From positions 64,001 to 128,000 of the forward strand of contig CAWDSK010000002.1 of NCBI GenBank assembly GCA_963804995.1: DNA of 64,000 nt, written 5' to 3'. Shown here piece by piece: positions 28,889-32,757 of this stretch (position 1 is its first letter; each line of letters starts with the position of its first letter). The notes under the pieces are model-generated. The model ran no database searches. It saw only the letters and a program-made list of their open reading frames with translations, and was not told the DNA's origin. The position numbers and the translations under genes are program-made. This DNA comes from an uncultured Acidobacteriota bacterium. Its GTDB lineage: Bacteria; Acidobacteriota; Terriglobia; UBA7540.

Positions 28889-29620
28889 TCAGCTTAGCTT
28901 ATTCCCCGCGTGCAGGCCGCACTCTTTCTTGGTGGCTTCTTCCCACCACCAGCGGCCTTCGCGTTCGTGCTGGCCCGGCAGAACGGCTCGCGTGCAGGGT
29001 TCGCACCCGATGGAAATGAAGCCGCGCTCATGCAAGGGATTGAAGGGAACGTTGTTTTCCCGAATGTAGTCCCAAACTTGCTTCGAGCTCCAATTGGCCA
29101 GGGGGTTAAACTTCACCAGGTCCCGTTCCGGGGTCGCGAACGTGGGGTCAGCTTGTACGACGGGGACAACGGCGCGCGTCGACGGACTCTGGTCGCGGCG
29201 CTGCCCGGTGACCCAGGCGTCCATGGTGCCCAGCGCCCGTCGCAGCGGCTCCACCTTGCGAATGCCGCAGCACTCCTGGTGCCCGTCCTTATAGAACGAG
29301 AAGAGGCCTTTCTCGCGCACCAGCTTTTCCACCGCTTCCGGCCGCGGGAAGAAAACCTCGATGGGCAGGTTGTAGTGCTCACGCACCCGGTCGAGGAAGC
29401 GCAGCGTTTCCGTGTGCAGGCGCCCGGTGTCGAGTGAAAAAACGCGGAACTTTCCTCCCAGCTTCGCGGCCAAATCCACCAGCACCACATCTTCCGCGCC
29501 GCTGAAACTGATGCCGATCTGGGGAGAGAACATTTCAAACGCCAGCGCCAGGATCTCCCGCGGATGTCGCTGGGCGTAGGTTTCGGCCAGTTCGGCCCAA
29601 TTTGCAACTTCAGTCTGCAT
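28889..29620 (-). CDS. cysH: Adenylyl-sulfate (APS/PAPS) reductase
   Basis: [42 protein letters not shown]; Fe-S Cys motifs point to APS type. Confidence 0.93.
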
Positions 29621-29651
29621 GGTTGTTTTCCTTTTCGAGTTATAAGTGAAG

Positions 29652-30021
29652 GTAGGAGACAGGAGCGAGGAGCTAGTGTGGTGTCCCGGTTAATATTTGA
29701 CAAGGCTGTCCGACCCCCTCACCCCCCAGCCCCTCTCCCCCAAAGGGGCGAGGGGAGAGTTAATTTTCTTGCCCTCGCCCCTTTGGGGGAGAGGGTGGCT
29801 GGCCGAGGCGTTCTCATCAGCCGAGGCCAGACGGGTGAGGGGGTTCTACCCATTGTCAACTCTAACTCGGGACACTACACTAGGAGTTAGAAGGGTTGTG
29901 GGCAGATTGTGGAGGCATTCAGCTTGCCAACTCCTAACTCCTCACTTCTAGCTCCTTACTCCTGCCTTCTGAGTTCTGACTCCTAACTTCTAGCTCCTAG
30001 CTCTTCACTCCTAGCTCCTGC
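29652..30021. repeat. Inverted 7-bp arrays (AGGAGNT / CTCCTAN) interrupted by a MITE
   Basis: gtaggagacaggagcgaggagct[MITE]aggagttag ... ctcctaa ctcctca cttctag ctcctta ctcctg. Confidence 0.7.
29673..29883. mobile_element. MITE, intact copy (211 bp including terminal CTAG)
   Basis: Ends CTAGTGTGGTGTCCCG / CGGGACACTACACTAG; near-identical inverted copy at 31206..32817. Confidence 0.85.
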
Positions 30022-30024
30022 AGC

Positions 30025-30795
30025 TTATCCCACCAGCAGGCGCGCTCCCAAAGAAAAATAGAGAACACTAAAGAGCCAACTGAAATAGCGCTCCGGAATG
30101 ATGCGGGTCAGGCGGCTCCCCAAAACGACGCCGGGGAGTGACCCCGCCGCCACGCGCAGGAACAGGTGGCTATCAAAATGCCCCAGCCACACGTGCATCG
30201 TTCCCGCCAGCGCCATGGTGGCGAGACCATAGAGAATGTCCGTGCCAACCAACTCGCCCAGCGGGTAAGGCGTGAGCAACAACAGGAAGACCATCAGCAG
30301 GCTGCCGCTGCCAATCGAGGTGAGCGCCACTAGAAATCCCACCAGCGCCCCAGCCAGGACCAGTTTGATGCCGGCAGAGCGGGAAGGCGCATCCACCCAA
30401 ATCTTGGGCGGCTTGATCTTCCCCAACCGCACCAGCGGCAGCACGAAGGCCACAATGAAAAGCGTGACGCCGAGCACACTCCGCAGCACATGATCGAGTT
30501 GGCCGACTCCAAGGTGAGCCTTCAGGTAGTGAATCAGCAGCATTCCGCCCACGGTCCCCGGTACGGTGCCCGCAATCAGGAAAGTCGCGAGTCTCCAGCG
30601 AACTTGCCCGAGCCGGCGGTGCTCAAACACACCCACGAGCTTGGTGAAGGCGCCGTTGACAATGTCCGTGCCGATGATGGTGACCGCGGAATATGGGGTC
30701 AGCACCATCAACAAGGGAGTCAGCAGCACGCCGCCGCCGGTGCCCGTCATTCCGATCAGTGTCCCCGTGATAAAGCCGATGATGGTAATGAACAT
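30025..30795 (-). CDS. TSUP (TauE/SafE) family sulfur-compound transporter
   Basis: GMTGTGGGVLLTP, IGTD, TSIGSGSL, LVGTD, GSLPGVVLGSRL; upstream of cysH. Confidence 0.9.
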   Translation of the reverse strand: MFITIIGFITGTLIGMTGTGGGVLLTPLLMVLTPYSAVTIIGTDIVNGAFTKLVGVFEHRRLGQVRWRLATFLIAGTVPGTVGGMLLIHYLKAHLGVGQLDHVLRSVLGVTLFIVAFVLPLVRLGKIKPPKIWVDAPSRSAGIKLVLAGALVGFLVALTSIGSGSLLMVFLLLLTPYPLGELVGTDILYGLATMALAGTMHVWLGHFDSHLFLRVAAGSLPGVVLGSRLTRIIPERYFSWLFSVLYFSLGARLLVG

Positions 30796-30867
30796 AAGCC
30801 GTTACCGCCGATTGTTCCCGCTGCTTCCCGCCCTGCAAGCTGACTGACTCTCGCCAGAAGGCCACCC

Positions 30868-30911
30868 AAAAACAAAAACGCCCGCTGGCGTTATCTCCGT
30901 CAGCGGGCGTC
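30868..30911 (-). terminator. Intrinsic terminator (attenuator) in the TSUP-cysH leader
   Basis: Minus strand ACGCCCGCTGACG-gagataa-CGCCAGCGGGCGT then TTTTGTTTTT. Confidence 0.85.
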
Positions 30912-30947
30912 TCAGATTAGGAACTGTTTGAGTGGGTCTTACAAGTC

Positions 30948-31043
30948 CTACTTCTCTGAGGTGACAACGCCGCTGCCGGATGGGGTACAACAACACATCC
31001 GCCGGGCGCCCTGGGTCCTCATCGAGTTGGAACTTGTAGCCAT
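30948..31043 (-). CDS. Cys-rich leader peptide MATSSNSMRTQGARRMCCCTPSGSGVVTSEK
   Basis: 31-codon uORF with TGT-TGT-TGT at 30995-30987, between promoter and terminator. Confidence 0.8.
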   Translation of the reverse strand: MATSSNSMRTQGARRMCCCTPSGSGVVTSEK

Positions 31044-31054
31044 TAAGAAAGCAG

Positions 31055-31083
31055 ACGATACCATGGCCACGACACTCTGTCAA
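31055..31083 (-). promoter_or_regulatory. Sigma70-type promoter of the Cys leader / TSUP-cysH transcript
   Basis: TTGACA-17 nt-TATCGT with extended TG, 11 nt before leader ATG. Confidence 0.7.
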
Positions 31084-31367
31084 TACGCCTGGATGAAATT
31101 TTTGATGCATGGTTGTTATTAGCATGATAGGGGTCATTATGTTGGTGCCCGTGCGGTGCTGGCGCGGTTCGGCTAACCATTGTCAAGTAAAGAGCAGACG
31201 CACCCCTAGTGTGGTGTCCCGTGCTAGAGTTGACAATGGGTAGAACCCCCTCACCCGTCTGGCCTCGGCTGATGAGAACGCCTCGGCCAGCCACCCTCTC
31301 CCCCAAAGGGGCGAGGGCAAGAGAATTAACTCTCCCCTCGCCCCTTTGGGGGAGAGGGGCTGGGGGG

Positions 31368-32757
31368 CATAGGCGCTAGAATAGCTCATTCGATGCTCCT
31401 AGGCGAAGTTGTTGCGCGTGGAGGAGGCGGTTCATAAGGAGCGAGAGCGGGTGCCGGAATTTTTCTCGATCGTAGATTCGTTTTCGAGGTGCCTCGGTTA
31501 AAGCCTGACGCGCCAGGGGCCAGCGATGTTGTTTAACCCGCAAGGAGAAGGTCCCGTAAATGGCCAGGATCAAATCCAAATGGTGCAGATGCACCCATCG
31601 CCACAGGCTAAGCCGCGACGCTCCGGCAGCGGGGAACTCCCCAGGGGGAAATAGAAACGGCCTCCTCATGCAAACACTGAATCAGGGCCACCTCAATCAA
31701 CTTGGCCAGACAGTAGGTGCGCACCAAGCCGGGGTCGAAGGCGCGGAGCTGATCAAAATGCAAGAGGCCTTTGCAGCGTTTAAAGAACAGCTCAATCTGC
31801 CAGCGGATGCGGTAGAGTTCCAGGACCACGTCGTCACTGGCGAGGGCTTCCGGCAAAGTGGTCAGCACACAGAAATAGCCGGCCAGACGCAAGGCGGTGG
31901 CCTGCGGGGTGCGGCCTTTTTTGGCGGCATTGCGGCGCAAGCGCTGACGGCTGCGGTGGGCTGCTTCGCTGGGCAGAGGGCGAATCAGCAGTCGCACCGG
32001 AGCAGGGGCTTTACCCGAAAGGGGGACATATGCAACGGTCCCCGTATCTCCAGCGTCCGCCCTTTTCAAGGTCTGGTTCAGATTCAGAGGCTGTCCCTGG
32101 GCGTCGTGCAGCCGAATATTCTGCCAATGCATGCGCAGCAGAACATAGGCTCCGGCTTCGCTCACCGCATGAATACCTTGGGCGCGCGCCAATCCCCGGT
32201 CCCCGCAGACAATGTCCCCCGGCTGCGGGCGGTCGCGATCCAAGCGCTCGCCGCCCTGGTGGTCGGTAATCTCCACCCGTCGGAGACGACACTGGGCGGG
32301 ATCATAGACGGCATGCAAACGCCAATCCGTTCCTTGGCTGCCGGGGATGCTCAGCACGGTGGCGTTGAGGATCCGAAAGGCTGGCCCCGGGGCAGGCTCG
32401 GCCCGCAGTCGCTGCGTCAGCAGATGCGCCAAGACTCGCTCCAGCAGAGGAGGAGCCTTGCGCAAACGATGCAGGATAGAGGTGTCCTTGAGCTCCAGAG
32501 CCGCCTGGGCGGACCAAGCCGCCGTGCTCCGCAAAGAGAGGTCTTCGATGGCATATGCTAGAATAACTCTCAATAACTCCTCACCGCTCTTAAGGTTGCG
32601 CCATCGCGCCACGGCTCCACTGCGCTTAGCCAACTCACTCATATTGGCTGGCAAATACTGGCATAGATACTTCCAGTCGGTATCCATTAGATTCTTGTTC
32701 ATGCCAGAAGCATACATCAGCAGCAGAATAAGTCAATTTCTTATTCTAGCGCATATG
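31368..32757 (-). mobile_element. IS4-family insertion sequence (1390 bp)
   Basis: TIRs CATAGGCGCTAGAATA / CATATGCGCTAGAATA; 11-bp TSD GGGCTGGGGGG at 31357-31367 and 32758-32768. Confidence 0.9.
31608..32717 (-). CDS. IS4-family DDE transposase
   Basis: GDRG second Asp, YRIRWQIELFFKRCK (YREK motif); first Asp position reads N (ILNAT). Confidence 0.88.
   Translation of the reverse strand: MYASGMNKNLMDTDWKYLCQYLPANMSELAKRSGAVARWRNLKSGEELLRVILAYAIEDLSLRSTAAWSAQAALELKDTSILHRLRKAPPLLERVLAHLLTQRLRAEPAPGPAFRILNATVLSIPGSQGTDWRLHAVYDPAQCRLRRVEITDHQGGERLDRDRPQPGDIVCGDRGLARAQGIHAVSEAGAYVLLRMHWQNIRLHDAQGQPLNLNQTLKRADAGDTGTVAYVPLSGKAPAPVRLLIRPLPSEAAHRSRQRLRRNAAKKGRTPQATALRLAGYFCVLTTLPEALASDDVVLELYRIRWQIELFFKRCKGLLHFDQLRAFDPGLVRTYCLAKLIEVALIQCLHEEAVSISPWGVPRCRSVAA

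Follow-up and report, generated by a model that had tools for sequence, protein, structure and literature searches.

A candidate cysteine-sensing leader-peptide attenuator before a TSUP permease gene and cysH in an uncultured Acidobacteriota bacterium

What decides whether RNA polymerase enters a sulfur-assimilation gene pair that lies behind a strong predicted terminator? This question is raised by a locus of an uncultured Acidobacteriota bacterium (GTDB class Terriglobia; GenBank assembly GCA_963804995.1, contig CAWDSK010000002.1). The window, as we call the whole stretch of DNA that was analysed, covers 64,000 nt of this contig (positions 64,001 to 128,000). On its minus strand, a short upstream open reading frame (uORF) with three consecutive TGT cysteine codons is followed by the predicted terminator, by a gene for a TSUP family permease and by cysH. 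Sulfur assimilation is known to be controlled by CysB/Cbl, CymR, S-box (S-adenosylmethionine, SAM) riboswitches and the T-box. Classical leader-peptide attenuators, described by the Yanofsky model, are the trpL, hisL, pheL, leuL, thrL and ilv leaders of Proteobacteria. To our knowledge, the regulation of genes has hardly been studied in Acidobacteriota, a phylum dominant in soil, and cysteine is the one major amino-acid pathway for which textbooks name only protein regulators, the S-box and the T-box.

We propose that the leader is a leader-peptide transcription attenuator, a predicted sensor of the cysteinyl-tRNA supply placed before the TSUP permease gene and cysH. From the comparison of sequences and from folding models, we put the probability of this reading at about 0.82. 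A preliminary description of the same DNA had placed the promoter, the 31-aa uORF, the Cys codons, the RNA segments and the terminator on the minus strand, and all of these positions proved exact. It had also assigned the leader to the trp/his type of attenuation logic, which the conserved uORF, Cys run, frame, terminator and alternative pairings across the genus support. The features are collected in Table 1.

Table 1. Predicted features of the leader and the genes downstream of it (positions in the window)
Feature	Position	Strand	Details
Sigma-70-type promoter	31083-31055	(-)	-35 TTGACA 31083-31078, 17-nt spacer, -10 TATCGT 31060-31055, TG before the -10
Leader uORF, 31 codons + TAG	31043-30948	(-)	ATG at 31043, TAG 30950-30948; peptide MATSSNSMRTQGARRMCCCTPSGSGVVTSEK
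Putative regulatory codons TGT-TGT-TGT (Cys17-19)	30995-30987	(-)	Read from the sequence
Segment 1, uORF 5' half, 5' strand of the predicted anti-antiterminator	31037-31016	(-)	RNAalifold consensus and pairing counts
Inner hairpin, Cys codons in the loop	31001-30977	(-)	CGGATG 31001-30996 facing CATCCG 30982-30977
Segment 2	30975-30941	(-)	CAGCGGCGT 30975-30967 and CTCAGA 30960-30955 pair with segment 3; 30962-30941, including the stop codon, pairs with segment 1
Segment 3	30916-30901	(-)	TCTGAGACGCCCGCTG; predicted antiterminator 3' strand and terminator 5' arm
Segment 4 + T tract	30887-30868	(-)	Terminator 3' arm CAGCGGGCGT 30887-30878, then TTTTTGTTTTT to 30868
Predicted intrinsic terminator (segments 3:4 + T tract)	30916-30868	(-)	13-15-bp G+C-rich stem
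TSUP/TauE-SafE family permease, 256 aa, putative first regulated gene	30795-30025	(-)	Pfam PF01925, E = 2.1e-42
cysH (PAPS/APS reductase family), 243 aa, presumed second operon gene	29620-28889	(-)	Pfam PF01507, E = 9e-54

On the basis of this arrangement, we envisage four RNA segments that would pair either as 1:2 together with 3:4, the terminator, or as 2:3, the antiterminator. When Cys-tRNA is plentiful, the ribosome would reach the stop codon and cover segment 2. Segment 3 would then pair with segment 4, and RNA polymerase would terminate at the T tract (30878-30868). When Cys-tRNA is scarce, the ribosome would stall with a Cys codon in its A site and the inner hairpin melted, leaving segment 2 free just past its leading edge. 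Segments 2 and 3 would pair before segment 4 is synthesized, which would allow read-through into the TSUP gene and, probably, cysH. With no ribosome on the leader, segment 1 would hold segment 2 and the terminator would form. The parts themselves, their conservation, their covariation and the fold predictions are matters of observation.

The promoter agrees with the consensus at 10 of 12 positions. A scan of 3 kb found two promoter-like sites (0.8 +/- 0.8 in shuffled sequences) and none between the leader and the TSUP gene. In relatives, TTGAC(G/A) and TGnTAnnnT are retained at the same place. The distance from the -10 element to the uORF ATG is 11 nt in the window and 11-16 nt in the genus, and we infer a 5' untranslated region (UTR) of a few bases and a nearly leaderless mRNA. 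The terminator hairpin of the window, at about -22 to -26 kcal/mol, lies ~35 nt past the uORF and ~73 nt before the TSUP gene.

The preliminary description had proposed a search of relatives for poly-Cys uORFs, and this search bore out the leader as a standing part of the locus. Close relatives of the TSUP protein (75-84% identity) occur in metagenome-assembled genomes of Terriglobia or Acidobacteriota. A Cys-run uORF with a terminator stands directly upstream of the TSUP orthologue in 26 of the 29 relatives' loci, and in 25 of them all cysH comes next after TSUP. In one further genome (G033) the uORF and terminator stand before the gene that precedes TSUP. In G026 and G022 no Cys-run uORF with a terminator was found upstream; their TSUP proteins are 55-57% identical and lie behind another gene. 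A DNA query of 295 nt from the leader found matches (E <= 1e-10) in 23 of the 28 genomes of the same genus, and every match spanned the Cys codons to the terminator; among these 28 congeners the DNA query gave no match in G007, G011, G015, G022 and G026.

Two loci depart from the common pattern. In one (L015, G017:C11), TSUP is absent and the leader lies directly before cysH, with a Cys-Ser-Cys run (TGT AGT TGT). In the other (L041, G013:C41), a single in-frame TGA interrupts the TSUP orthologue and cysH is matched in two pieces, with the leader intact; the TSUP-cysH operon of this genome may be decaying.

We aligned 24 leaders (alignment A1: the window, 22 congeners and G033; one more sequence was removed since it was identical in the aligned region). 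All 24 retain the upstream ATG and the frame, ungapped to the Cys run, and the stop codon falls within three codons of its position in the window. The preliminary description had held that an untranslated and non-conserved uORF would speak against attenuation; the uORF is conserved. Indels inside the uORF are only 3 or 6 nt long and add Cys codons, giving CCCC, CCCTC, CCCMCC or CCCTCC, and those in the spacer past the stop codon are 1-3 nt long. The Met preceding the Cys run is replaced by Ala in two of the 24 leaders, so the upstream ATG is the conserved start. The run contains three to five Cys codons in congeners, two in G017 and eight to nine in a sister family.

Outside the terminator, the sister-family leaders (L047, L049 and L050) have little sequence in common with the window. 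Their peptides contain CCCCCMCCC, CCCCCCICC and CCCICCCACAC, and a terminator and TSUP-cysH follow. GGAG stands upstream of the ATG in L047 and L049. That a Cys-rich frame and a terminator are kept over this distance is predicted by a translation sensor, not by an aptamer.

These data bear on a different account, in which the terminator is governed independently of translation, by an RNA switch (a riboswitch or an element that binds a protein or a tRNA), and the open frame is a coincidence. A highly structured leader RNA with covarying helices would suit such a switch, as would the uORF without a Shine-Dalgarno sequence and a nucleotide conservation across the uORF that is as high as the peptide conservation within the genus. 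Yet indels confined to multiples of three, each adding Cys codons, are those of a reading frame, and the sister-family leaders share the Cys-rich ORF and the terminator only, with no common aptamer-like core. A second leader family, before sulfite reductase genes, again pairs a CCC uORF with a different terminator. The leader is also unmatched by the sulfur-related riboswitch and T-box covariance models of Rfam, and an Rfam cmscan of positions 29500-32500 at E <= 10 gave no match to any family inside 30868-31083. We consider an RNA switch very unlikely.

Another account holds that the small ORF encodes a functional Cys-rich peptide, for metal binding or as a precursor, and that the terminator merely ends a small gene. 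The peptide is well conserved within the genus, with the consensus MTTNLHSVRSSDxRxMCCCTPSASGxLSSGNRDL. Outside MCCCTPS, however, the window peptide departs from this consensus at most positions, whereas compensatory changes preserve the base pairing, and the sister-family peptides are unrelated apart from the Cys run. Moreover, the element always stands in sense orientation before sulfur-assimilation genes, and the promoter scan places no separate start between leader and TSUP gene. A functional peptide as the reason for the ORF is, to our judgement, hardly credible.

For the attenuator that we propose, the alternative pairings are the central part. RNAalifold on alignment A1 returned the terminator and a long-range helix between segment 1 and the stop-codon side of segment 2 (helix 1:2). 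Together they are 95.6% paired, compared with 41-50% in slid controls. Compensatory changes affect six of their pairs (10 cells), and 0-2 of 500 column shuffles do as well. All six compensated pairs belong to segment 1 with its partner, the predicted anti-antiterminator. Taken alone, helix 1:2 is 91-95% paired and the terminator 98.3% paired in the 24 sequences. The CGGATG/CATCCG hairpin of the preliminary description is present around the Cys codons (80% paired, 27-48% in slid controls), but it is only the inner part of this larger anti-antiterminator.

The antiterminator is formed by CAGCGGCGT and CTCAGA against TCTGAG.ACGCCCGCTG, with 15 pairs and one bulged C. It is 94.2% paired in the 24 sequences, compared with 29-43% for slid partners. 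One-sided changes in it all retain a standard pair, mostly as G-U wobbles. Its sole compensated pair distinguishes CTCAGA/TCTGAG of the window from CTCAGG/CCTGAG of the relatives. Segment 3 is invariant in 22 of the 24 leaders, apart from this compensated C-to-T change in the window. The search for covarying stems, also proposed in the preliminary description, thus yielded six compensated pairs for 1:2 and only one for 2:3.

Energies were evaluated across the genus. In 23 same-genus rows, the outer 1:2 helix has about -4 to -17, the 2:3 duplex -10 to -20 and the 3:4 hairpin -20.5 to -26 kcal/mol; these rows leave out G033, which is misaligned there and whose terminator has -19.6 kcal/mol. In the full-length minimum-energy fold, the terminator forms in 24 of 24 sequences and the antiterminator in none of the 24. 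Compared with shuffled sequences, the 196-nt leader folds at -79 kcal/mol (-62.2 +/- 4.6 in shuffles; z = -3.66; 0 of 200 as good). The duplex of segments 2 and 3 has -20.1 kcal/mol. Dinucleotide shuffling of the upstream 70 nt gives -11.7 +/- 2.5, with two of 1000 shuffles as good.

How would the position of a ribosome choose between these structures? In our model the ribosome acts as a barrier, and folding was restricted to the RNA that begins 13 nt beyond the A-site codon and ends at the terminator loop. With the first or the third Cys codon in the A site, at least 5 of the 15 antiterminator pairs form in 24 of 24 sequences. At least nine pairs form in 23 of 24 for the first Cys codon and in 21 of 24 for the third. 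With the stop codon in the A site, the antiterminator forms in 0 of 24. Folding of both states, as suggested in the preliminary description, therefore separates them in these barrier folds.

A codon-by-codon profile was made for five independent leaders, namely that of the window, the three of the sister family and the sulfite reductase leader of the same genome. In all five, the 5' arm of the terminator is sequestered up to the Cys run and released 2-6 codons beyond the last Cys codon. Because release follows so closely, the regulatory codons would be the last positions at which a stall gives read-through.

Codon usage was compared with that of the genome (58.5% G+C). Cys makes up 0.89% of codons in its long ORFs, and TGT is the minor Cys codon, with 26% of the genome-wide Cys codons. 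The Cys codons of the leaders are nearly all TGT, a minor and wobble-read codon, both in the window and in relatives. The genome contains two tRNA-Cys(GCA) genes, and the use of TGT would slow decoding by this single tRNA-Cys(GCA) species.

On the other hand, several observations weigh against the attenuator. In this genus no Shine-Dalgarno sequence precedes the uORF, whose predicted 5' UTR is a few bases long. The covariation of the antiterminator is thin, as 77 of 500 shuffles equal its count of one compensated pair. For the antiterminator duplexes of the other four leaders, 24 to 68 of 1000 shuffles are as good, which is only a modest gain. Ribosome-free transcripts ending before segment 4 fold 2:3 instead of 1:2 in 5 of 24 sequences. 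More than 15 nt separate segment 1 from the Cys codons downstream of it; a ribosome stalled on these codons would not cover it, and it could re-pair behind that ribosome. In folds that only mask the footprint (13 sequences, heuristic arm detection, noisy), clean 2:3 pairing appears in 9 of 13, with one more ambiguous, for an A site at the first Cys codon, and in only 1 of 13, with four ambiguous, for an A site at the last. Given the mask-only folds and the 2:3 pairing in ribosome-free folds, the model works only if the stalled ribosome is a barrier or a trailing ribosome covers segment 1. A trailing ribosome would just fit in the 15 codons before the Cys run.

The reach of the leader is a further point on this side. 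The preliminary description had assigned it control of TSUP-cysH. The leader does precede both genes, but in this genome 404 nt containing a palindromic repeat separate TSUP from cysH, and that the leader also controls cysH here is suggested by the gene order in relatives. What we propose at this stage is that the uORF is translated, that ribosomes stall on it, that transcription terminates beyond it and that cysteine alters the outcome.

Does the genome contain other leaders of this kind? A scan of the whole genome (7.55 Mb, 9 contigs) for ORFs of <=70 aa with >=3 consecutive Cys codons returned 201 small ORFs. When the 201 are ordered by how strong a terminator hairpin follows them, the TSUP leader and a sulfite reductase leader come first. 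Motif searches of the genome for both terminator types found only these two known leaders.

The second Cys leader lies at G000:C3:307596-307795 (L081:1596-1795) and has a TTGACA/TATGCT promoter. Its uORF, MRTPFQPGMAMCCCTVPAPTCGERA, occupies positions 307631-307708 of contig C3, and its terminator is CCCACCGCCGG...GAGCGGTGGG with a T tract. From the uORF stop codon, 88 nt lead to a gene for a 751-aa sulfite/nitrite reductase (NIR_SIR, E = 2.6e-55). This leader type, defined as M..LQ.G.AMCCCT.P.PACGG.A with a CCCACCGTCGG-type terminator, was matched in 17 of the 28 congeners and in G033. Because this second leader precedes sulfite reductase in the same genome, the attenuators likely coordinate several sulfur-assimilation units.

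The sulfite reductase orthologues were also surveyed across the class, where 20 of ~37 full-length sequences were sampled and a second sulfite reductase type (50-54% identity) was left outside. A Cys-rich uORF with a terminator lies upstream in 8 of the 20 (families f1, f2, f7, f9 and f12). It was not found in the other 12 of the 20, including all six of f4 and all four of f6.

Paralogous leaders stand before genes for TonB-dependent-receptor-like outer-membrane proteins in G028, G008 (L105, G008:C10) and G021 (L107, G021:C134), in the last of which they form a tandem pair. Contig 18 of G028 (L132/L133) carries three leaders within 32 kb (G028:C18:14707, 42720 and 46210). One stands before a sulfatase-TPR gene followed by genes for an oxidoreductase and MFS transporters, one before a small gene followed by TIM-barrel and (GFO) oxidoreductase genes, and one before the gene for a 1215-aa receptor. 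The identified targets all have sulfur-acquisition functions, which fits a cysteine-limitation signal.

We offer a broader proposal tentatively, and hold it to be somewhat less probable than its opposite. In this order of Terriglobia, sulfur-starvation control may run largely through a family of Cys-tRNA-sensing attenuators, not through a CysB- or CymR-type protein. Sulfite reductase, TSUP-cysH, the sulfatase operon and the TonB-type receptors would then form one RNA-level regulon. If this is true, Cys leaders would mark otherwise unannotated sulfur-scavenging genes in uncultured soil acidobacteria.

Compared with the classical attenuators, the leader has in common an intrinsic terminator and segments that pair as 1:2, 2:3 or 3:4. 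It would also share the logic by which segment 2 is left free by a stall at the regulatory codons but covered once the ribosome has reached the stop codon, a geometry seen here in fold predictions only. In contrast to them, the amino acid is cysteine, the lineage is Acidobacteriota, and the putative targets are a permease gene and cysH instead of a complete biosynthetic operon. An inner hairpin carries the regulatory codons in its loop, and the anti-antiterminator is a long-range helix connecting the two ends of the uORF. No Shine-Dalgarno sequence precedes the uORF, and its predicted 5' UTR is very short. What would be new, judged from sequence and folding, is a classical attenuator for cysteine, in a new phylum and before a new pair of targets; the mechanism itself is textbook.

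The closest known likenesses come from other bacteria. Candidate leaders with Cys codons and without terminators were reported in actinobacteria (Seliverstov et al., 2005; PMC1262725). In Mycobacterium smegmatis, a polycysteine leaderless small ORF (sORF) was tested as a translational attenuator, and its authors state that uORF-mediated attenuation for cysteine was previously undescribed (Canestrari et al., 2020; 10.1101/834739). The mycobacterial sORFs share with our leader a run of Cys codons within a short ORF that opens the transcript and precedes cysteine or sulfur genes, a proposed sensing of Cys-tRNA and a leaderless or near-leaderless start. They differ in having no intrinsic terminator, and the tested one pairs its Cys tract with the Shine-Dalgarno sequence of the next gene. 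In the window, a strong predicted terminator stands between uORF and TSUP, and the Cys codons, ~190 nt upstream of the TSUP start, pair locally.

The mycobacterial case also lends some weight to a reading in which the translated uORF responds to a signal different from Cys-tRNA charging, such as general translation capacity or coupling, or acts mainly via Rho or mRNA stability. The polycysteine sORFs described there act on translation and not on termination (10.1101/834739). The window leader has only three Cys codons, and the 1:2 helix could re-form behind a ribosome stalled on them. Nevertheless, the Cys run is the one feature common to otherwise unrelated leaders, where it expands to 8-9 codons, and it lies exactly at the boundary where stalling still frees the antiterminator. 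The restriction of the targets to sulfur-acquisition genes and a terminator with a 13-bp G+C-rich stem and a T tract also speak for cysteine and for termination. We regard such a different signal or route as unlikely.

The preliminary description had taken Cys leaders to be reported mainly in actinobacteria. This needs amendment, since the uORFC-8-2 motif, predicted before cysS in Rhodobacterales, combines a Cys-Cys uORF and an intrinsic terminator (Brewer et al., 2021; PMC8632094). As described there, the motif and our leader share tandem Cys codons in the first stem and a terminal intrinsic terminator, and both are bioinformatic only. By the same description, uORFC-8-2 has two Cys codons and controls cysteinyl-tRNA synthetase in Alphaproteobacteria, whereas sulfate assimilation would be controlled here. 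The genes downstream of our leader are TSUP and cysH, and we set it apart from uORFC-8-2 by the motif description, not by its alignment.

The leader shares with CysB, CymR, S-box and T-box control its physiological target, that is, sulfate assimilation or sulfur scavenging induced when sulfur amino acids are short. It differs from them in that it has no aptamer or T-box signature, and sensing would go via the translating ribosome. Full-text searches of the literature, with subscription journals outside their coverage, gave no description of Cys leaders in Acidobacteriota or, with terminators, before sulfate-assimilation genes.

With a cysteine sensor that works through the ribosome and a classical terminator, leader-peptide attenuation would reach the cysteine pathway as well. 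Because the leader is easily recognised, it could be used as a marker of genes induced by sulfur limitation in uncultured bacteria. The genes so marked would be the TSUP permease gene here, and the TonB-type receptors and the sulfatase operon in relatives. With ~180 nt, three codons and four segments, the leader would also be a compact part for reporters.

The surroundings of the leader in the window contain mobile or repetitive DNA. Two inverted copies of a 92-nt G+C-rich palindromic repeat (31276-31367 and 29722-29813) flank the unit of promoter, leader and TSUP, and one of them fills the gap between TSUP and cysH. The only Rfam matches in 29500-32500, to microRNA models, are located on these two repeats and were dismissed as spurious. 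The repeat occurs at ~180 places in the genome and resembles repetitive extragenic palindromic (REP) or miniature inverted-repeat transposable elements (MITE). Just upstream of the leader promoter region lies an ORF for a 369-aa DDE_Tnp_1 transposase (31608-32717, minus strand). The transposase and the flanking repeats suggest local rearrangement around the leader-TSUP unit.

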